Shown here in pieces: positions 1,475 through 30,376 of a stretch of DNA of 32,000 bases. The DNA is taken from contig OY782392.1 of assembly GCA_963677765.1 (NCBI GenBank), forward strand, positions 30,001 through 62,000, in the 5' to 3' direction. The DNA is from Candidatus Saccharimonadota bacterium. GTDB taxonomy: Bacteria > Patescibacteriota > Gracilibacteria > BD1-5 > UBA6164. Under the pieces are notes generated by a model. It did not search any database, was not told the DNA's origin, and was given only the letters and a program-made list of their open reading frames with translations. A program made the translations under genes and the position numbers. Position 1 is the stretch's first letter, and each line of letters opens with the position of its first letter.

Positions 1475-2689
1475 ATGGGTAATTTTGAAAATAATAATTT
1501 TTGATTTAAAGAAAGTGAATTAAAAAATAATAACTTCAATCCAGAATTAGAAGCTTTTTTAAAAGATAATATTTTAGCAAAAGAAGAAGCTGATATACTA
1601 AATGATATGTTTGAAGAAAATAAAGCATGAATAATACTTGTATCTAAACAAAATCTAAGAAAATTAAGAGAATCAATATGAAGTAACAGTAAAGTTAACT
1701 ATATTAGTTCAAGTGATAAAAATATAATAAACAATATATCTCAAACAGAAAATACAAACTCAAATAAAGATACAGAGCCAAGTTATAATCTGGAACCTAA
1801 AAACAATCATATAGATTCAGAATGATATTTAACAAATGTAACAAAAATAAGATTAGATGAAATAGTTTGACCATCTGAAATGATAAAATTTTCAATAAAA
1901 TTATCTCAAAACAGTTTATATAATAACAATATGGATTGAAATACTTATAATGTTATATGGTGAAAAGATAAAATTTCAGGAAAACAAACTTATATTTTTC
2001 AAGAATGACCTAAAATAGGAGAAAGGGTAATGATAAGTAATGGCGATAAATTATGAGAATATATAGAAACACAAAATAATAATTTAGCACCTGAAACATC
2101 TCAAAGACCAATTCAAAGACCTGAAATTTTAACAAAAGATAATGAAGAATTAAATCAAGATAATCAAGAATTTATAGAGTGATTAGATTTAAATAATCAT
2201 TATAAAGAAATAGCTAAAGAATTTATATCAAAATTAAATTCAAATGAAATATTAACAAAAAATACACCGATAGCCCTAGTAAGTCATCAAAAAAAAGAAA
2301 TGGCATATATAATAAATTGAGAAACTATAATAGTTCCTGTATTATTATGAAAAAACTGAGTTACTAATTGATGATATATACCTAATGATAGAAAAACACC
2401 TATATGAAAAATCCATAGATTTGATCCGGATTTATCAATATTAGCAAATAGCCCTGATTGAGATGCAAGTAATTCTCAAAAATCAAAAACAGTAAAATCT
2501 GCATCTTTACAATCTGAATTATCTATTCAGTATTGATGAAGATATTTCCATTGAGTAGCACAATATAGAATAGACTGAAGAAATAATTGAATGTGAACAT
2601 GGTGATGTGTATGAGTTGATGTTAATACGATAAGAAAAATGTACCAAGATATACAAAGAAATGGTAAATGATATTGATATGTTTCTTAA
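1475..2689 (+). CDS. Hypothetical protein with C-terminal L,D-transpeptidase (YkuD)-like domain
   Basis: Open from ATG 1475 to TAA 2687-2689 with TGA read as Gly. The C-terminus reads TPIGKIHRF...YFHGVAQYRIDGRNNGMGTWGCVGVDVNTIRKMY, resembling the YkuD TPxGxF and His/(S/T)xGC(I/V) catalytic motifs. The N-terminal two thirds are Asn/Lys-rich with no recognisable domain. Confidence 0.5.
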
Positions 2690-2696
2690 ATAAAGT

Positions 2697-2720
2697 CCTA
2701 CTTAAATTGTAGGTCTTTTT
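2697..2720 (+). terminator. Weak intrinsic terminator
   Basis: cctac-ttaaatt-gtagg hairpin followed by tcttttt, a few nt after the stop at 2689. Confidence 0.4.
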
Positions 2721-2746
2721 ACTTGCAAATATTTTTTTTTAGATAT

Positions 2747-2760
2747 AATACGCGCGTATT
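2747..2760. promoter_or_regulatory. 14-bp perfect GC-cored palindrome aatacgcgcgtatt in the ndk promoter/leader
   Basis: Self-complementary and overlaps a tataat-like -10 (2744-2749) downstream of ttgcaa (2723-2728). I noticed no other CGCGCG run while tracking CG dinucleotides across the window. Confidence 0.3.
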
Positions 2761-2783
2761 TATATTATAAAATAAAAAATATT

Positions 2784-3230
2784 ATGGAAACTACATTAAT
2801 ATTATTAAAACCAGATACAGTTGAAAGAGGTTTAATCGGTGAAGTTATTTCTAGATTAGAAAACAAAGGTTTAAAAATCTCAGGTTTAAAAATGATGCAA
2901 TTAGATGATGCTATAGTTAATGAACACTATGATTTCTTAGCTGATAAACCATTTTTTCCAAATATCGTTAAATATATGCAAAGAACTCCTGTAGTTGCTA
3001 TTGCTGCTACTGGTGCTAATGCTATTGCTACAGTTAGAAACTTAACTGGTGCTACTAATCCAGCTGAAGCTCTACCTGGATCTATAAGAGGTGATTTTGG
3101 TTTAACAATAGATGCTAACATAATTCATGCTTCTGATTCTGCTGAAACTGCTGAAAAAGAATTAAATAGATTTTTCAAAGGACAAGACGTATTTAACTAT
3201 ACTAGAGTTATTGACGAAGTTATTTCATAA
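2784..3230 (+). CDS. ndk: Nucleoside diphosphate kinase
   Basis: Intact even under the standard code. METTLILLKPDTVERGLIGEVISRLE...NIIHASDS matches the NDK fold and catalytic His motif (NxxHxSDS). Contains no TGA codon. Confidence 0.95.
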   Translation: METTLILLKPDTVERGLIGEVISRLENKGLKISGLKMMQLDDAIVNEHYDFLADKPFFPNIVKYMQRTPVVAIAATGANAIATVRNLTGATNPAEALPGSIRGDFGLTIDANIIHASDSAETAEKELNRFFKGQDVFNYTRVIDEVIS

Positions 3231-3235
3231 TAAAA

Positions 3236-3265
3236 AAAGACTAAATTTTATTTAGTCTTTTTTTT
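3236..3265 (+). terminator. Intrinsic terminator
   Basis: 11-bp stem aaagactaaat/atttagtcttt with a 3-nt loop, followed by a T-run. Confidence 0.7.
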
Positions 3266-3309
3266 ATTTTTTTATATAATGAAGCGTAATATAAAATAAT
3301 AAAATTAAA

Positions 3310-4770
3310 ATGGCTAAGTTTTATGATACTTTAATTTGAGAATATATTAAGAAACCTTGAAATAGAAACCTATCTCTTGATAAATTAGCTCAAAATGATT
3401 TAAATTATGAAATGATATCGTATAATGATATAACAAATAAATGAAAAAACAATTTTAAAGATGTAGATTTAATTACAGCATCTAAATATTCATGAGAAGA
3501 CGTTATAATAACAAACAAAATATATAAAAAACACCTAGAATTAAATTTAAATAATGAAAAAATAATAAATGAAATAGAACTACCTCTAATGGAGGTTTTA
3601 GTTAATATGGAAATTGACTGAGTAAAGGTAGATAAAAATAAATTATTTGATATTTGAGAATTACTAAAAAAAGAAATTAAAAGATTAGAAGAAGAAATCT
3701 TTATAATATCTGATGAAGAATTTAATATTAATTCTCCAAAACAAGTATGAGAAATTTTATTCAATAAGTTAGCTCTACCGAAAGGAAAAAAAACTAAAAC
3801 TTGATATAGTGTTAATGCAGAAGTTTTATGAGAATTATCGCATGAATTTGAAATAGCTCAAATGATTGTTGATTACAGACATTATTCAAAACTTTTATCT
3901 ACTTATATAGAATGATTATCAAAATTATTAGATTCAAATTGACTATTACATACTAGTTATAACCAAACAGTAACAACAACAGGTAGATTATCTAGTACAA
4001 ATCCAAATCTTCAAAATATACCATCATCTCATTGAATAGCATGAGAAATAAGATCTGCTTTTATATCTAGATTTGAATGATGAAAAATAATAGCAATAGA
4101 TTATTCTCAAGTAGAAGTTAGAATATTAGCTATATTATCAAAAGACGAAAATCTTTTAAATTCATTTAAAAATAATGAAGATATTCATCATAAAACAGCA
4201 GAGTTTATTTTTCCTTGAAAAACAATAACATCCAACGAAAGAAAAATAGCAAAAGCAGTTAACTTTTGAGTAATATACTGAATTAGTTGATTTTGATTAT
4301 CAAAAATGATAGGGAAATCTCTAAAAGAATCTAAAGAATATATAGATAAATTTTTTGAATCGTATCCAAAAGTGAGAAGTTTTCTAGACAATACAATTAA
4401 AAAATGTGAGGAAACATGATATGTAGAAACGATTTTTGGCAGAAAAAGATATATAGCATGAATAAATGATTCTAATAAAATGATAAAATCATGAGCTGAA
4501 AGAGAGGCTATAAATATGCCTATTCAGTGAACAAGTGCAGATATTATTAAAATAGCCATGATAAAAGTATCGAATTACTTAAAAGAAAAAAATCTGAAAA
4601 CAAAAATGATAATGCAGGTTCACGATGAATTAGTTTTTGATACATATCCATGAGAAGAGGATATTATTAAAAATGATGTTATGAATATAATGGAAAATAT
4701 AATAACTAACGAAGATATAAAATTAAAAACAGATATATGAATTGGTAATAACTGGAGAAAAACTATTTAA
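3310..4770 (+). CDS. polA: DNA polymerase I, polymerase (family A) domain only; lacks 5'-nuclease and most of the 3'-5' exonuclease domain
   Basis: 486 codons. Motif A is DYSQVEVRILA, motif B is RKIAKAVNFGVIYGIS (both Gly are TGA) and motif C is QVHDELVF. The N-terminus MAKFYDTLIGEYIKKPG...YSGEDV aligns to the region around the Exo III motif of Klenow fragment. The gene is preceded by the ndk terminator and ends at TAA 4768-4770. Confidence 0.85.
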
Positions 4771-4786
4771 TACTTAAATAAATAAA

Positions 4787-5014
4787 ATGGAATTCTTTTT
4801 TAAAATATTTTATGGAATAATTTTTATAATATTTTGATTATCTATATTGAAATATAGAAAACTAGTACATTCATGGACATGAAACTTTGTATGGGCAGAA
4901 CAATATATATGAAGAGGTTGAACTTATTTTGTATTAGTACTAATATGATTAGGTTTTGTGTTTTTTTGAGCAATTTATCCATTTTGAGGTTTAGAGTTAT
5001 TAACTTCAAAATAA
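4787..5014 (+). CDS. Small hydrophobic (2-TM) hypothetical protein
   Basis: 75 codons. MEFFFKIFYGIIFIIFGLSILKYRK...GGTYFVLVLIGLGFVFFGAIYPFGG gives two hydrophobic segments. There is no homology basis. Confidence 0.4.
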
Positions 5015-5111
5015 AATAACAAATAGACAAGTCATATTTACATAATGTTTTTAAAAAAAATAAAAATATAAGTAGTATTAGGATGTATTTAATTTATAAA
5101 ACAAAAAACAA

Positions 5112-6662
5112 ATGAGGAAATTTTTAAGTATAATGGTATTTATATTACTATCTATAAATATAAATTATACTAATGCTTTGGAAATAGAGTATAGTGAAAA
5201 TGACACAATAAAAATTGAAAATCAAATTAAAAAAGAAGTATCTAGATGAGATGTTTTTATATTCTTCGCTGACTTTTTTAACGCAACACCAAAATCATAT
5301 AAATATATAGATTTAAATTTTGAATGAATTGAAAAGTGATCAGAACTTGAAGATTCTCTTAAAAAATTAGTTTATCATGATAAATTAGATAATACTAAAA
5401 CTAATATATATCCTGAAAAAGATATAAATTCATATGCTTTTTACTACTTATCTAGAGATATTTTAGATATAGATATGAATTTAAATAAATCAACTCTAAT
5501 AAAAAAGAATACAACAGAAGAAGATTTAGTATTTATTAAAAATACATTTAGATATTTAGAAGAAGAAGAAAAAGCATATCTTGAGTATAAAAATTTTAAT
5601 GCTTTATGAAATAAAAAACAAATATTTGATGATGTTTATTCAACAATAACAAATGAACATTATAAAAAAGATGAAATAAATAATGATGATCTAATATATT
5701 CAGCTATAGAATGATTAGCTAATTGAGTATGAGATCAACATACAGTTTATTTCCCACCTGTAGAAAATAAAAGTTTTGCTGAAAACCTAGAATGAGAATA
5801 TGAATGAATTTGAGCATATGTAGAAATGACTAAACCCTGAGAAGTAAAAATAACATCTCCTGTTCCAGGTGGTCCAGCAGAAAAATCAGGTATAAAATGA
5901 TGAGATATAGTAACAAAAGTAAATGAAAAAGAAGTAACTGAAGAAAATTCTCTAGAAGAAGTAACAAGCTGGATAAAATGAAAAAAATGAACTAAAGTTT
6001 CTCTTACTATATTAAGAAAATGAGAAGAAATAAAAATTGATGTAATAAGAGACAAAATAGTAATAAAAAATCTAGAATATAAAAAATTAAATTCTTCAAC
6101 TTTCTATATAAAAATAAAATCATTTGGCAGCCATATATCTAATGATTTTGAAGAATCTCTTCTTGAACTAAAAAAAGATAATAATATTAAAAAAATAATA
6201 ATAGATTTAAGAAATAATTGATGATGATATCTTGATCAAGTTGTTAAAATGCTATGATATGTAATTGATGATTGAGAAAAAGTAGCAGTAGTAAAATATG
6301 ATAAATTCAAACAAAATTATTATGCTAGTTGAGATAATATAGTAGATTTAAGTAAATATGAAATAATAATACTTCAAAATTCATGAACTGCATCAGCATC
6401 TGAAATAATGATTTGAACCCTTAAAGATTATTTTAATGTTTATACAATAGGGGAAAAAACTTATTGAAAATGATCAGTACAAACAATAAAAGAATACAGT
6501 GACTGATCTAGTTTTAAATATACTATAGCTAATTGGTATACTTGATGAAGTGAAACATGAATTGATTGAAAATGAATTGAAGCTGATAAATCAATAGAAC
6601 TAGATATTGAAATGCTAAACAATTGAGAAGATAATCAATTAAATGAAGCTCTTAAAAAATAA
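5112..6662 (+). CDS. Carboxy-terminal processing protease (peptidase S41) with PDZ domain, signal peptide
   Basis: The signal-like N-terminus is MRKFLSIMVFILLSINI. The PDZ region is GIGAYVEM...PVPGGPAEKSGIKGGDIV. The S41 catalytic context is NSGTASASEIMIG (Ser) and TYGKGSVQ (Lys). Many Gly are TGA. Confidence 0.85.
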
Positions 6663-6673
6663 ATAATAAAAAA

Positions 6674-8137
6674 ATGAAATATATTATATGATTATTATTA
6701 ATAATGATGCCAGTAAACATAATGGCATCATATTCAGATATAGATAATAATATATCTAAACTTTATAATGCTTTTTACAGTAAAGTTGAAAAAAAATATA
6801 CAAATGATAAATGATTAAGCTTTTTAATAAAGTTAGATTTAGCAATAAATAATTTACAAAAAAACAAAAAATTATCTAATAGTTCATATAAAAAGTTAAA
6901 TGATTTAGAAAAGTTAAATAACCAAAAAATATTTGAAATTGAATTTACAAATATACAAAGAAACTGACAAGAAGAAATAAATTCTAATGAATTATTTAAA
7001 AATTTTAAAAATAAATCTTATAATAAAGATATTTTAAACCTAGAAAATTGAGTATGGTATAGTTATGATTATAAAAAGTCTTATTATTTTAACAACAATG
7101 ATAAGATAACTTACAATGATCTTATAAAAAACTGAATAAATCCTGAAACAGATTTAATTATTTATTGAGATAATTGAATAGCTTTCGTTAACGAGTTTTC
7201 TAAATTCAAAATAGTTACAGATGATACAATATATTGAATACCAAATAAATTAGAAACTATAAATTTTTTAAAAAAATCAAATAGACACTTAAGAAAAGAT
7301 ATAGATAATGATTTAAGTCTAATAAAAAAAATATCTATTGATATAAATGAAAATCAGACTAATAATGAAGAAATTATAAAAAATATATATTTATATATTC
7401 TTGAAAATATAGAATATTCAAATAATTTTAACTTAGATGATTATGAAATATATTCTTGAGTAGAAACATTTAATAGAAAAAATTGAGTTTGTGAATGATA
7501 TGTTGAGTTATTTAGTTTAATGTTATCATATAACTGAATAAATAGTAGTATTATAAAATGAGATGTTATAGACGCTAATGATTTTCCCAACATAGGTCAT
7601 GCTTGGGTAAAAATAGATGAATATTATTATGATATAACTTTTGATGATCCAATATGAAACACTCAAACTAAAAAATTTGATGAATATGAATATTTTAAAC
7701 TTCCAAAAGATTTATTTTATACTAATAGATATAACTTTTGAGACACCCCTGAAAATTTAAAAAATACATCAATTGAATATAGAAAAAAATTAATTAATGA
7801 AAACTTAACAAATTTAATTGATAAATATAGGAATGATAATTACAATTTATTAAAACCAATAATTTTCAAAAAAGAGAATAACATAGATACTGAAAAAATA
7901 ATTGAAGTAAATGACATATTAAAAATATATAAATATTATAAATTTGAAGATTATAAGATTTATTTTGATAATCAAATAAAAGAAGTTCAATCTCTTAATT
8001 ATACTATACTAGAAGATAATAGTATAAATACATTATTAAAAGAAAAAAATTATAATTTAAGTAATGAAATAATACTTGAATGGATAGATAATTGAACAAA
8101 ACAATATATATTGGTAAATCAAGTCACCTATAGATAA
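6674..8137 (+). CDS. Secreted transglutaminase-like cysteine protease domain protein
   Basis: Signal-like N-terminus. The core is NGVCEGYVELFSLML...IGHAWVKIDEYYYDITFDD, matching a Cys-His-Asp transglutaminase-like triad. Confidence 0.7.
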
Positions 8138-8183
8138 GTATATAAAAAGTATATAATCTTTTGACTTATGCGAATAATAAGTA

Positions 8184-8217
8184 AAATAGACTAAATTAAA
8201 TTTTAGTCTATTTTTTT
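8184..8217 (+). terminator. Intrinsic terminator abutting the next start codon
   Basis: 12-bp stem aaatagactaaa/tttagtctattt with a 6-nt loop and a T-run ending at 8217. The helicase ATG is at 8218. Confidence 0.65.
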
Positions 8218-11200
8218 ATGAATAAAAATATATTTGAGCAAGAGTATAAAAAATTAAATGAAGCACAAAAAGATGCAGTTGATAATATTTATTGACCACT
8301 TATGGTTGTAGCATGACCAGGTACAGGTAAAACACAAATTATTGCACTTAGAACAGCTAATATTATAGATAAATCATGAGCTGATGCTAGTAATATACTA
8401 ATAACAACATTTACAGAAGCATGAGTTATAGCTATCAGAAAAAGATTAGTTAAATTTCTATGACAAGATTGATACAAAGTAAAAGTTTCTACTTTTCATG
8501 CATTTGCATCAGAGGTAATTTCAGATTTTCCAGAAAAATTTTTAGAACAAAGAGCAAAACAAACAATTGATGATATTGAATCTTATGAAATACTAAGTGA
8601 AATATTAGATAAAAAAATTGAATCATGAGAAATAAAAGATTTATTCAATAGTATGGATAAATATGCTTTTTTAAGAGATATAAAAGATAGAATATGAAAA
8701 CTGAAAACAGAATGAATATCTCCAAAATGATTTGATATAATAATAAAAAAACAAGAAAATGAATATAATGAAAGATTGCTAGATTTGGAAAACAACAAAA
8801 GAATAAGAGATTTAGAAAAAAGAAGAAAAAAAGACAAAGATTGATATGATAAACATATAAATAAATTAAAAGAATTAAATCTTATATATAAGGATTATTC
8901 AAAAATAATAAAAGAAAAATGATTTTATGATTTTGCTGACATGATTAATTTTGTAACAGAAAAATTCAAAAATGATGAAGAAATATTAGCTTATTATGCT
9001 GAAAAATTTCAATTCATGATGATTGATGAATTTCAAGATACAAATAACTCTCAAAATCAAATAATAAATTTAATGCTTGATTATTTTCCAGAAGAGCAAA
9101 ATATAATGGTTGTTTGAGATGATGATCAATCTATATATCGTTTTCAATGAGCAAATATAGAAAATATGCTTGATTTCACTAATAGGTATCCTAATACAAA
9201 ACATATAGTATTAGATAAAAATTATAGATCTAGTCAGGATATATTAGATATATCTCAAGAATTAATAGAAAATAATTCACAAAGAATATCGAATAAAATT
9301 GAATGAATAAATAAAAATCTAACTGCTGAATGAAAATACAGAGAATACAAAGAAAATAATCTTTATATTCTTGAAAATGATCTAAAAGAGAAAGAATTTG
9401 TATATAGGGAAATAAAAAAGAAAAACTTAGATGAAGAAACATTTGCCATAATAGTAAAAACAAATAGACAAGTTGAAGAATGGTCATTGTTTTTAAAACA
9501 AAAATGACTGAAAGTAAATTCAAAAAACTCATCTAATATTTTAAATAATCATTATTGCAATTTTTTACTTAATTTTATAAAATTTGTAAATAATCCATAT
9601 TTTGATGATAATATATTACTTGATTTAATAAGAAGTGACTTAATTGATATAGAAAATATAGATGCTATTTACATGTCTAGAAGCTTATATCAAAAAAATT
9701 ATAGTAGAAACAAATATAAACTATGACTATGGGATATAATAAAAGATATAGAAAATGATGAATATGCAGAATTAAAGGATTTAGAAAAGATAGTTAGATT
9801 TAAAGATCTAGTAATAGATTTAAATTCAAGCCTATGAAATTGATGATCTACTAAATTAATAAGAGATATATTAGAAAAATTAGAAATATTAAGTCATGTT
9901 GAAAAAAATGGTAGTTTTGATGACTTACAAGATATTTTTACACTAGTAAATAAAATAAAATGATATATTGAAAACAATAAAGAGATAAGTCTTTCAAATA
10001 TTTCTAATAAATTTGATTTATATAAAAAGTTTAATGTATCAATAGCCAGGGAAAGCATAAAATCTATTAATTCAAATATAGAAATATTAACTGCTCACGC
10101 TTCAAAATGACTTGAATATGATCATGTATTTATACCAGAAGTTTATGAATGAAATTGGAATAGAAAGGCTTTGCCAGATAAATTAAAACTTCCTATTTGA
10201 ATAAGTTGAGATGGCCTTCAATATTCAAATCTTGATGAAAAAGAATACAAAAATCTAGAAAAAGAGATTTCATTAGAAGAAGAAAGAAGACTATTTTTTG
10301 TTGCAATAACAAGAGCTAAAAAATCATTAACCTTTACAGTAGCTTGAACAAAGGAAAACAAAATTTTAATAAAATCTAGCTTTATGGAATCAATAGATTT
10401 AGAAGCTAATGAAATGGATTTAGATATAAATGAGGATGAGTTAAAAAAGATATTAATATCATCAATGACTAATAATAATGAATTAGTAAAAACAAATGAA
10501 GATGAGATTAATTTTATAGCAAAATTCTTAGAAGATTATAAATTATCTCCAACAGATCTAAATAAGTTTTTAGAAAGCCCTAAAACTTTTTTAAGAGAAG
10601 TTATTTTTAGATATCCTTTTTTATCAAATGAAAATTTAGTATTTTGAAGTGTTTATCATAAAATATTAGAAAATACTTATATATCAAAAGAAAAAAATAA
10701 TATCTTAAGTAAAGATGAAATTATAAATTTATTTAAAGAAGAAGTAAATAAATATGATTTATCAAAAGATGAATATGAAAGACTGTTAGAAAGATGAATA
10801 AATTGATTAAATTGATATTATGAAATAATATTAAACAATAAAAGATCTACATTAGAAAATGAGTATAATTTTAGATCTAAAAATGTTATATTTAATTGAA
10901 TTCCTTTAACTTGAAAAGTAGATAAAATAGAATTAATAAATGACAACAACATAGCACTTATAGATTACAAAACAGGTTCTATAAAAACAATATGAGTTAT
11001 CAAATGAATAGATAGATATTGAAACAAAAAAGAAAGCTGATGAAATTACTTAAGACAATTACTATTCTATAAATTAATGTTTGATAATACATCAGAATTA
11101 AATAAGAAATACAATTTAATAGAACTTTGATTAGATTTTGTTGAATGAAAAAAAGGTGAATATAAATATGTAAATGTTGATTATAACGAAGATGAATATA

Positions 11201-13547: not shown

Positions 13548-14474
13548 CTAAACAGCAACAGGAGCTTTTATAATTCAATGACTTTTATATCAAACAAGTT
13601 CAAAATCCTCCCATTCTAATTTTTCAATATCTTCAAGAGTTTTTATATCTTTCAATATTTTTAATTCTGGTAATGGATAAGGTTTATTTGATAGTTGTTC
13701 ATTAACCTGATCAATATGATTATTATATATATGAGCATCTCATAATGTATGAGTAAAAACTCATGGTTTTAATCAAGTTATTTTAGCAACAAGTAACAAT
13801 AAAGTTGAATAACTAGCTATATTAAAAGGAACTCATAAAAACATATCAGCACTTCTTTGATATAATTGTAAATTTAATTTATTATTTGTTGTATCAACAT
13901 TAAATTGAAAAAAAGCATGACAAGGAGGTAATAACATATCGTCTAATTGAACAGGATTCCATGCTGAAACAATAATTCTTCTATTTGTAGGATTATTTTT
14001 TATTTGTTCAATAGCATTCTTAAGTTGATCAACTCATTGGCTATTAAAATTCCTCCATTGATGTCAATAAACTGGTTATAATTCTCACCACTTTTTAACA
14101 AATGAATCATTTTCATCTAAGTTTTTTATTTTATCTGCAAAATTAGCCTTTTCAGTATACCGTTTATCACTATAAATAGGGAAGTCATCATTTAAACCAT
14201 TTGAATCCAAATAATTCTGAAAAGGCCACTCATCCCATATATGACAATTTCTATCAACTAAATATTTTATATTAGTATCTCATCTTATTAACCATATTAA
14301 TTCTACAATTATTATTCTTAAGAAAGTTTTCTTAGTAGTAACAAGAGGGAATCAATCATCTAAATTATATTTAGCTTGCATACCAAATATTCATCTAACT
14401 CATGTACCTGTTCTATCATCTTTTCAAATACCATTATCTCTAATTTCTTTTAATAAATCCAAATATTGTTTCAT
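13548..14474 (-). pseudogene. thyA: Thymidylate synthase (ThyA, long form with insert) interrupted by one in-frame TAA; a possible sequencing error or polymorphism
   Basis: [31 protein letters not shown]...KKWGEL[TAA]PVYGHQWRNF...[14 protein letters not shown]...[10 protein letters not shown]...[19 protein letters not shown]...[10 protein letters not shown] checked every triplet of the frame. The only internal stop is at 14076-14078 and the terminal TAG is at 13548-13550. Confidence 0.85.
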
Positions 14475-14612
14475 AAAAAAATATTTAATATATATATTAA
14501 TACTAATATAAAAGAAAAATATTTTTTTTCAAAAATAAATCTTTTTCTTTTGCAAAAAACAGGTTTTTAATTAGAATAATTCTCACTTAGATTTAATTTA
14601 TTATTAAAAGAA

Positions 14613-29379: not shown

Positions 29380-29384
29380 TTTGC

Positions 29385-29424
29385 ATTTCAATGTATTTTT
29401 AATAAAATAATCATACATTGAAAT
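29385..29424. repeat. 12-bp inverted repeat (16-nt loop) between the transporter stop and the tRNA 5' end
   Basis: atttcaatgtat ... atacattgaaat. The 3' arm ends 3 nt before tRNA position 1. Confidence 0.6.
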
Positions 29425-29427
29425 TAT

Positions 29428-29504
29428 AAGGACCTAGCTTAATTAGAAGAGTGCTCGGATTCCGACCCCGAGAGGCGTAGGTGCAATTCCTACGGTCCTT
29501 GCCA
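29428..29504 (+). tRNA. tRNA with anticodon CCG (nominally tRNA-Arg; identity ambiguous), genomically encoded CCA, non-canonical anticodon arm
   Basis: Manual cloverleaf: AAGGACC/GGTCCTT acceptor, TA, GCTT-AATTAGAA-GAGT D arm, G, CTCGG-ATTCCGACC-CCGAG anticodon arm, AGGC variable region, GTAGG-TGCAATT-CCTAC T arm, discriminator G, CCA. It is the only GC-rich island in the window. Confidence 0.8.
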
Positions 29505-29522: not shown

Positions 29523-29555
29523 AAAAAATCTTAAACATACTGTTTAAGATTTTTT
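29523..29555. terminator. Bidirectional intrinsic terminator (tRNA and the convergent minus-strand gene)
   Basis: 15-bp stem aaaaaatcttaaaca/tgtttaagatttttt with loop tac, preceded by an (AAACAAAA)-like A-rich tract. Confidence 0.75.
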
Positions 29556-29556
29556 A

Positions 29557-30363
29557 TTATTTAAGTAACTCTTTTACTTTAGCTGTTTTCATTAAATTAG
29601 CTAAATATTCAGAATCTTGTATAACTTCTCTATAATCAGGAGCTAGGCTAAGTAAATTATTAATCGCAGCTATAGCATTTTCTTTGTCATCAAGACAATT
29701 AAAAGCACAAGCTCTATTGTAAAGTGCATGTGGTTGATGTTTGGCTCTATCTCAAGAAACAATAGAGTCTGTTATTTCGATAACCTTATCATAAAGTCAC
29801 ATAGATAAATAAACATTTGACTTTTCAATAGTTACAAATTGAGATTCAGGTTTTAAATAATAAATTCTATCTAAAATATTTATCTTTTCTTTATCACTAT
29901 CAGAAGTATTGTATTGTCTCCATAAAATATTTATTTTTTGTTCTTTTTCTAGTTCTTCAATCTTTTTTTGGAATTGAGATATAATTTTTTTTGTTTCTCT
30001 ATCCATAGAAGCTTTAGTAGCATTTTTTATATCCCCAATTGTTTTCCATCAAACTATTCAAAATCATGCTATAACAACAGTAAGTAGAACAAAGAAAAAA
30101 TTAACAGTGTTAGCTGAGTATGATAAAGCTTTATCAATTGCTGAAATTTCTCTAGATTGAATATCTTGATATATTTCTCTTTTTAATGTCTCTTGATCAA
30201 TTCTTAATTCTTTTAATTCAGTTAATATAAACCTTTGAGTCCAATCTATTTCTTCTGGAACTAAAACTTCAGTATCAGAAGAATCAAATCCATTTATATC
30301 AGCTGAAAAACAAAAAGAAAAAGAAAGAAAAAAAGCAATCAAAACAAAAAGTATTTTTTTCAT
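29557..30363 (-). CDS. Membrane-anchored hypothetical protein (signal peptide, one TM, coiled-coil, TPR-like C-terminus)
   Basis: This joins two ORF-track fragments (30064-30363 and 29797-30006, same frame) through TGA codons. MKKILFVLIAFFLSFSFCFSA...NFFFVLLTVVIAGFGIVGW...ALYNRACAFNCLDDKENAIAAINNLLSLAPDY is TPR-like. Confidence 0.6.
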
Positions 30364-30376
30364 ATATTTTTAAAAT

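Follow-up and report, generated by a model that had tools for sequence, protein, structure and literature searches.

Locus and architecture of the tRNA gene

We describe a transfer RNA (tRNA) gene with anticodon CCG, hereafter tRNA(CCG), that lies in a 32,000-nucleotide (nt) stretch of contig OY782392.1 (the window, i.e., the whole stretch of DNA analysed) and probably serves to decode the rare codon CGG as tryptophan. The guanine-plus-cytosine (GC) content of the window is ~21%, and its genes are of the cellular housekeeping kind (e.g., a U32 peptidase gene, ndk, polA, a uvrD-like gene, folA-thyA, ftsH, murD and ruvC). ARAGORN detected a single tRNA in these 32 kb, 77 nt long, with anticodon CCG, at 29428-29504 on the (+) strand. 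The same sequence scored 47.1 bits against Rfam RF00005 (gathering threshold 29; E = 3e-7), which places it in the tRNA family. Both searches bear out a preliminary description of this DNA, which had listed the gene as the only tRNA of the window, with anticodon CCG, a cloverleaf and an encoded CCA. The parts of the gene are as follows.

29428..29504, (+): tRNA gene with anticodon CCG and encoded CCA, the proposed Trp-accepting decoder of CGG (ARAGORN, Rfam, 59 homologues with compensatory changes)
29428..29434, (+): 5′ strand of the acceptor stem, AAGGACC, with A1 paired to U72 at 29500 (A1-U72 in 39/39 distinct sequences)
29441..29448, (+): D-loop AAUUAGAA, with A18 (29445) replacing G18, then G19 (29446) and A20 (29447) (direct reading)
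29454..29472, (+): expanded anticodon arm CUCGG-A-UUCCGAC-C-CCGAG, with the anticodon at 29462-29464 and A37 at 29465 (family alignment)
29473..29476, (+): variable region AGGC, 4 nt (Rfam alignment and minimum-free-energy fold)
29482..29488, (+): T-loop UGCAAUU, with G55 (29483) replacing U or pseudouridine (Psi) 55, and C56 and A58 retained (family alignment)
29501..29504, (+): discriminator G73 followed by the encoded CCA (39/39 distinct sequences)

Read directly, the 5′ half is AAGGACC UA GCUU AAUUAGAA GAGU G CUCGG A UUCCGAC, and the remainder is C CCGAG AGGC GUAGG UGCAAUU CCUAC GGUCCUU G CCA. The acceptor and D stems are separated by U8 and A9, the D-loop has 8 nt, and the acceptor/T arm is of the 7/5 type. 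The anticodon arm can be drawn either as a 5-bp stem closing a 9-nt loop or with a sixth apposition, A29459·C29467, closing a 7-nt loop (UU-CCG-AC). Both drawings had been offered in the preliminary description, and both are present by direct reading, as are the A1-U72 pair, G73, A20 and C35 that it had singled out. To that list we add position 37, which is A; bacterial tRNA-Arg(CCG) normally has G37 after G36, forming the m1G37 substrate of TrmD.

A conserved tRNA family with a lengthened anticodon arm

Homologues of the tRNA were collected by two pattern scans. An exact pattern of the anticodon arm, run on one genome per GTDB species, returned ten true homologues, from metagenome-assembled genomes named Gracilibacteria, three named "Peribacteria" and one unclassified. 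A pattern of the 5′ half, with the anticodon and 3′ half left free, returned 51 metagenome loci with 49 complete tRNAs, all 49 of them 77 nt long and all 49 with anticodon CCG. Together, these amount to 59 homologues with 39 distinct sequences, every one with anticodon CCG and every one hosted by a low-GC, TGA-recoded contig of Gracilibacteria/BD1-5. Specifically, the carriers range from 19 to 29% GC, and TGA is a sense codon in all of them. The metagenome pattern fixes positions 3-25 and the genome pattern positions 27-45, and invariance is informative only where a position was free. The nearest relative of the window among the loci is L057, with 90.6% nucleotide identity and synteny across the tRNA.

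Pattern scans returned no CCA-anticodon paralogue among the 49 complete metagenome matches to the 5′ half, no homologue among the viral contigs scanned, and no Absconditabacterales genome matching either pattern. A BLAST search of the tRNA against annotated records gave no match to an E. coli genome and one weak match, a phage tRNA-Gly, which is uninformative as to isotype.

Across the 59 loci, conservation of the tRNA gene is 92-97%. In the 39 distinct sequences, pairing reaches 96.6% for a cloverleaf drawn with a 6-bp anticodon stem, and registers slid from this alignment collapse. Eleven stem pairs have changed on both sides, and the observed covariation was reached by 0 of 500 shuffles. 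Among the changed pairs are 2:71, 6:67 and 7:66 of the acceptor stem, and all five of the other anticodon-stem pairs covary besides the sixth apposition. Three of the four helices show covariation; in the remaining one, the D stem, the sequence had been set by the pattern used for the search. The sixth apposition itself is A·C in 28 sequences (including that of the window), A·A in 1, U·G in 5, C-G in 3 and U-A in 2, and because of this distribution we take the anticodon arm of the family to be really lengthened, with a 4-nt variable loop. The tRNA family is real and under strong purifying selection, with compensatory changes in its stems.

The unusual elbow described for the window (G55 in the T-loop, A18-G19 in the D-loop) proved to be a property of the whole family: G55 is found in 38 of the 39 distinct sequences, and at position 18 there are 28 sequences with A and 11 with C. 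A1-U72, G73, U33 and A37 are invariant in all 39, with the positions of G73 and CCA left free by both search patterns. A20 is invariant in the ten genome matches, whose D-loop was free of the search pattern. Four other tRNAs lie in the same contigs. Those for Lys, Gln and Ser are fully canonical, with UUCGA T-loops, and the fourth, a tRNA(UCG) at locus L054, has a normal GG D-loop and a UUCGA T-loop but a 4-bp anticodon stem. Since all four have a normal elbow, the odd elbow is specific to the CCG tRNA. The fetched loci contain no ribosomal or aminoacyl-tRNA synthetase genes that could lead to the tRNA-Trp of these genomes.

The position of the gene varies. In the window and at L057, the tRNA comes after a NicO-like gene. 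At L089, which is otherwise syntenic, the tRNA (8141-8217) comes after ruvC instead, and the NicO-like gene is directly adjacent to the RelA/SpoT-like one. A gene for a large serine recombinase (Pfam Resolvase and Recombinase) lies directly 3′ of the tRNA at four or more loci (at least L066 [1820-3379, (−) strand], L067, L070 and L020), an arrangement suggesting that the tRNA(CCG) gene is used as an integration site by mobile elements. ARAGORN also reports a tRNA(CCG) at 1541-1617 of CP042461.1 (L031, Gracilibacteria 28_42_T64), a strain for which the 2021 table gives none (PMC8629427); the gene may have been missed or filtered there owing to its odd structure.

The host lineage, its codon usage and UGA recoding

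Long open reading frames (ORFs) appear in the window only if TGA is read as sense. With TGA so read, 27 ORFs comprising 9,937 codons were called, and in these CGG occurs once, CGA and CGC never, and CGT twice, vs 247 AGA and 22 AGG codons. TGG occurs 52 times, and TGA 493 times vs 104 for all GGN codons. Furthermore, TGA aligns with TGA or GGN codons of orthologues and with conserved Gly residues of solved thymidylate synthases. Because TGA is this abundant relative to GGN and stands at conserved Gly positions, the window uses genetic code 25 (UGA = Gly). The preliminary description was right on two further counts, namely that CGG is nearly extinct in this DNA and that the lineage has recoded UGA.

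The closest named relatives are Candidatus Gracilibacteria, and the window shows the features of the code-25 lineage (class JAEDAM01, order BD1-5), namely UGA as Gly and low GC. Comparison with the published table (PMC8629427) places it in the GTDB order BD1-5, the sister order of Absconditabacterales. For Absconditabacteria, a reassignment of CGA and CGG to Trp was reported by Shulgina and Eddy in 2021, with CGG = Trp also predicted in some Gracilibacteria (PMC8629427). Their table describes a low-GC BD1-5 subclade (GC 0.21-0.29; CGG at 0.5-3 per 10,000 codons) in which tRNA(GCG) is present, tRNA(UCG) absent and tRNA(CCG) mostly present (PMC8629427). Within BD1-5, Codetta called CGG as Trp in two genomes and returned "?" in the rest, with CGA called Arg or "?"; the two genomes with a Trp call have tRNA(CCG) and lack tRNA(UCG) (PMC8629427). 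The window fits this subclade.

Three carriers named "Peribacteria" were considered as a standard-code control in which CGG would be Arg, and were rejected, having 19-23% GC and TGA as sense. The label "Candidatus Peribacteria" of L020, L026, L030 and L035 is apparently wrong, because this GC range and the sense reading of TGA are like those of BD1-5. Public protein predictions of the clade are mostly made with code 4, in which TGA-encoded Gly is shown as W, and all of them show CGG as R. The Trp and Gly columns of the clade are therefore systematically corrupted in the databases.

CGG codons stand at conserved tryptophan positions

Orthologous ORFs, called with TGA as sense, were compared across all carrier loci and the window (~143,000 codons), in which CGG has a frequency of ~2-3 per 10,000 codons. 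In the pooled tally, the residues facing CGG were W 16, Y 8, K 2, N 2, R 1 and I 1. For comparison, TGG faced W in 92% and Y in 2.7% of cases, and AGA faced R in 71% and K in 15%. About nine independent sites have CGG at a conserved Trp position, and none has it where Arg is conserved. The window has one CGG codon.

14160..14162, (−): the only CGG of the window, codon 105 of thyA (13548-14570, minus strand) (codon count)

The 77%-identical orthologue of L048 has TGG in this column. Of the 120 closest homologues in the databases, 109 have W in this column and 11 have R; all 15 that are unambiguously translated (with Gly at TGA) have W. All R-bearing homologues come from code-4-style translations, and in each of the three distinct genomes whose codon was read (L094-L098), R is encoded by CGG. 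The other W columns of ThyA hold W in 119-120 of the 120, with one exception (W 108, Y 11, R 1). As a control, the conserved Arg columns of ThyA are never W nor CGG. The distant ThyA homologues in the PDB are uninformative here, with the CGG codon falling in a variable insert aligned with E or Q. At codon 133 of the window thyA (14076-14078, minus strand), there is an in-frame TAA where orthologues have TGA or GGT for a Gly of the motif G-x-L-G-P-V-Y-G. The gene is otherwise intact and 74-87% identical to its homologues, and the TAA is a sequencing error, a polymorphism or the mark of a very recent pseudogene.

Several other proteins show the same pattern. In the GT32 glycosyltransferase motif IPKxIHYC[W]F, unambiguous translations have W in 82 cases and R in 1, and code-4-style translations add 7 more R; this R occurs in TGA-recoded sequences only, and its codon is CGG in L051, L089 and L090. 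An ApaH-like phosphatase has GH[CGG]A, where orthologues have TGG and the solved bacterial ApaH has GHW. A dihydrofolate reductase (DHFR) has T[CGG]ES, with TGG in three orthologues, and a CGG site in the C terminus of a UvrD-like helicase is TGG in the copy of the window. For a CGG site in a CBM2 domain, the residues facing it in solved structures are W, W, W and Y, and two further CGG sites are TGG in one orthologue each. L097 has CGG in a FISUMP-like motif, CPxG[CGG]HVPS, at a position that we take to be W in this motif. A PDB search with the GT32 protein and with a CGG-containing YkuD-like protein gave no matches, and in the PDB comparison the second CGG of a PL7 lyase fell in a variable stretch and was uninformative.

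CGA is not read as tryptophan in the carriers

The neighbouring codon CGA behaves differently. Its pooled tally in the carriers is K 15, N 9 and R 8, i.e., Arg/Lys-like and not Trp, and CGA has not been reassigned together with CGG here. The preliminary description had pointed to the published Absconditabacterales clade in which both CGA and CGG became Trp, without deciding whether this genome belongs to it. The comparison supports CGG-to-Trp, but the lineage is BD1-5 and CGA has no part in the reassignment.

Among the carrier loci, a tRNA(UCG) occurs only at L054, where it occupies 9904-9978, 5 nt upstream of a tRNA(CCG) at 9984-10060 that has the fully paired 6-bp version of the anticodon stem. 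This tRNA(UCG) has A1-U72 and G73 and lacks A20, a G31·A39 mismatch leaves it with a 4-bp anticodon stem, and its body is unrelated to that of the CCG family. By the rule published in 2021, which classes A20 with A/G73 as Arg-type and G73 without A20 as Trp-type, it would be a Trp-type tRNA (PMC8629427).

Three other loci, L091-L093, have CGA at Trp positions, which is the code of the Absconditabacterales type. Within 10 kb, L091 has 13 CGA codons, among them those at the invariant Trp of a GT32 protein (6346-7065) and at the W of EG[W]K in enolase (4359-5657). Neither a tRNA(UCG) nor a tRNA(ACG), which could serve the Arg-like CGA codons, is reported for the BD1-5 subclade.

tRNA(CCG) as a probable tryptophan-inserting decoder of CGG

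A CGG-specific tRNA is confined to low-GC genomes with UGA = Gly in which CGG, and not CGA, occurs in frame at Trp columns. The explanation that we favor, at a probability of roughly 0.7, is that this is a functional, non-canonical tRNA(CCG) that inserts Trp, rather than Arg, at the rare CGG codons of these BD1-5 genomes. The preliminary description had likened an odd tRNA for a nearly extinct codon to codon capture or reassignment, and the position of CGG at Trp columns, together with a tRNA family confined to TGA = Gly contigs, supports that view for CGG and Trp. Charging would be carried out by tryptophanyl-tRNA synthetase (TrpRS) via G73, A1-U72, C34 and C35; only the change of A36 to G would separate the anticodon from the determinants of bacterial tRNA-Trp. 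Judging from A37 and the Trp-like spacing of the 8-nt D-loop, the tRNA probably descended from, or converged on, tRNA-Trp. Its capture of CGG would have cost little, because AT pressure had presumably almost eliminated the codon beforehand.

Several observations weigh against this explanation. The main determinants of arginyl-tRNA synthetase (ArgRS), A20, C35 and G36, are present and leave room for some charging with Arg, and the published rule (A20 with A/G73) files the tRNA as Arg-type (PMC8629427), a label that the codon evidence contradicts. Two conserved CGG sites are not Trp-like, one facing Tyr four times and Arg once and the other facing Ala and Phe. In the thyA column, most W residues recorded in databases stem from code-4 translations, where W might just as well represent TGA. 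The window thyA carries the in-frame TAA noted above, and the only CGG of the window lies 28 codons upstream of it in the same gene. Finally, some CGG codons at Trp columns could be W-to-R substitutions, since CGG is one transition away from TGG.

Of the alternatives, the one that survives best, although we consider it unlikely, is an ambiguous intermediate in which TrpRS and ArgRS both charge tRNA(CCG) and CGG yields a mixture of Trp and Arg that is tolerated because the codon is so rare. It would explain why both identity sets (A1-U72 with G73, and A20 with C35 and G36) are conserved, and it agrees with the one CGG site that is aligned with AGA in one orthologue and with the "?" of Codetta for CGG in most BD1-5 genomes (PMC8629427). 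However, an Arg share would be costly at catalytic or structural Trp residues such as those of DHFR (TWES), ApaH (GHW), GT32 and CBM2, and CGG is found in no conserved Arg column.

Clearly less probable still is an ordinary tRNA-Arg(CCG) with lineage quirks, with CGG meaning Arg and the CGG codons in Trp columns being W-to-R replacements that arose by TGG-to-CGG transition. ARAGORN labels the tRNA as Arg (from its anticodon), A20 and G73 fit the published Arg rule (PMC8629427), and a CGG codon arising by a single mutation in these genomes would come mainly from TGG. Nevertheless, CGG recurs at the same Trp columns across several diverged genomes, the approximately nine independent Trp sites stand against essentially no Arg sites, and neither A1-U72 nor A37 (rather than G37) is typical of tRNA-Arg(CCG), the latter in light of what is established for TrmD substrates.

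We give very little credence to the idea that CGG is edited to UGG in the mRNA and that the tRNA is unrelated to the Trp signal. An apparent "CGG = Trp" in plant mitochondria is explained by C-to-U editing of mRNA, and the genomic pattern of CGG at Trp positions would be identical; this precedent is all that speaks for it. We know of no bacterial mRNA editing system of the C-to-U kind, and a dedicated CGG-reading tRNA with a Trp-like acceptor is conserved in exactly these genomes. Equally remote is a frameshift or quadruplet decoder using a 9-nt loop, or a decaying pseudogene or mere integration site: a 9-nt loop is one way of drawing the majority form and a serine recombinase gene adjoins the tRNA in four loci, but 10 of the 39 variants close the loop to 7 nt by a standard pair, the 92-97% conservation with compensatory changes does not suit a pseudogene, and quadruplet decoding is excluded by the in-frame position of every CGG site within conserved alignments.

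Returning to the tRNA as a Trp inserter, its structure admits a further conjecture, which is possible although we think it doubtful: the extra stem pair and the swap at 18:55 might hide A20, C35 and G36 from ArgRS, leaving a tRNA with an Arg anticodon to be charged with Trp alone, and might, by stiffening the anticodon arm, make C34 read G only. The CGR half-box would thereby be split into CGG for Trp and an Arg-like CGA. Such an arrangement would be the structural mirror image of the "superwobble" tRNAs with 4-bp stems described in 2026 (PMC13092985). A simple link between the 6-bp stem and discrimination against CGA is disfavored, because L054 pairs a Trp-type tRNA(UCG) with a 6-bp tRNA(CCG).

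Other features around the tRNA

Two further elements flank the gene.

29380..29408, (+): promoter-like site TTTGCA, 17-nt spacer, TAAAAT, 20 nt upstream of the tRNA; a putative promoter only (consensus scan)
29523..29555, no strand assigned: 15-bp A/U-rich hairpin between the tRNA and the convergent gene at 29557-30369 (−) (−12.8 kcal/mol; z = −6.1; equaled by 0/200 shuffles)

The consensus scan found promoter-like sites in the AT-rich window in a number not above chance. The hairpin is probably a bidirectional terminator. Elsewhere in the window, a 405-amino-acid (aa) ORF without a Pfam match (1475-2689) lies between the U32 peptidase gene and ndk; in L099-L104, contigs with an identical NDK protein, the same slot is occupied by a 361-aa rhodanese/UPF0176 gene.

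Significance and comparison with known tRNAs

Reassignments of sense codons are very rare in bacteria, and the case for CGG = Trp in BD1-5 had rested on two Codetta calls. The present comparison extends the CGG = Trp signal to the whole clade and links it to a single conserved tRNA family. Since it retains A20, this family breaks the sequence rule for tRNA identity. It also opens the questions of how a dual identity set is split between TrpRS and ArgRS, how stem length relates to wobble stringency, and how a codon box is split in the course of capture. In practical terms, database proteins of the clade are routinely mistranslated, with CGG given as R and TGA often as W. In the searchable literature, we found no description of a bacterial elongator tRNA that combines a sixth anticodon-stem pair with G55 and the lack of G18.

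Anticodon stems of 6 bp are known from tRNA-Pyl, tRNA-Sec and mitochondrial (mt) tRNA-Ser(UCN) (PMC7609411). The tRNA(CCG) family shares with these an elongated anticodon stem and a shortened variable region (PMC7609411), and with tRNA-Pyl also the lack of the canonical G18/Psi55 pair; it is likewise linked to a recoded codon. It differs from them in having both nt 8 and nt 9, an 8-nt D-loop, G19-C56 and a 7/5 arm; moreover, its sixth apposition is A·C in 28 of the 39 sequences and a standard pair in 10. None of the hallmarks of the three (a linker of 0-1 nt, a tiny D-loop, and a stop anticodon or an 8/5 or 9/4 arm) is found, and the family is not homologous to them.

With canonical bacterial tRNA-Arg(CCG), the tRNA has in common the anticodon CCG, A20 and a purine at 73, and the ArgRS determinants (A20, C35, G/U36 and A/G73) are all present in the form of A20, C35, G36 and G73. 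It departs from tRNA-Arg(CCG) in having A1-U72 rather than G1-C72, A37 rather than G37 (39/39), a non-canonical elbow and stem, and a cognate codon that is not found at Arg positions (a single R in the CGG tally). With bacterial tRNA-Trp(CCA), as in E. coli tRNA-Trp, it shares A1-U72, G73, A9, C34, C35, A37 and the 8-nt D-loop spacing; the differences are G36 for A36, A20, G55 for Psi55, A or C at 18, the extra stem pair and the 4-nt variable loop. Regarding the elements of the Trp-type rule, G73, A/G1:U72 and CGG at conserved Trp columns are all found, and the absence of A20 is not.

The tRNA(CCG) of Anaerococcus and Onthovivens, in which CGG is Trp and CGA is Arg, shows the same split of the CGR half-box and likewise has an anticodon one base from CCA. 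These hosts are unrelated Bacillota, and many of their tRNAs have 4-bp anticodon stems (PMC13092985), vs the lengthened stem here.

A close parallel in hosts and codons is offered by the Trp-type tRNA(CCG) and tRNA(UCG) of Absconditabacterales (PMC8629427), which likewise occur in low-GC hosts of the candidate phyla radiation with UGA = Gly and a rare CGG at Trp positions. They also have in common with the present family G73, A1-U72 and the logic of codon capture. Here, however, the host order is the sister order BD1-5, CGA is not reassigned, there is no tRNA(UCG) except at L054, and the window contains no CGA; thus, the Absconditabacterales code, in which CGA is Trp as well and is served by a Trp-type tRNA(UCG), is not the code of this DNA. 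The tRNAs themselves differ as well. A survey from 2026 reports 5-bp anticodon stems for the tRNA(CCG) of Absconditabacterales and argues that 4-bp stems relax wobble at C34 (PMC13092985), whereas the BD1-5 family retains A20, has G55 and no G18, and carries an anticodon stem of 6 bp or one closed by A·C.

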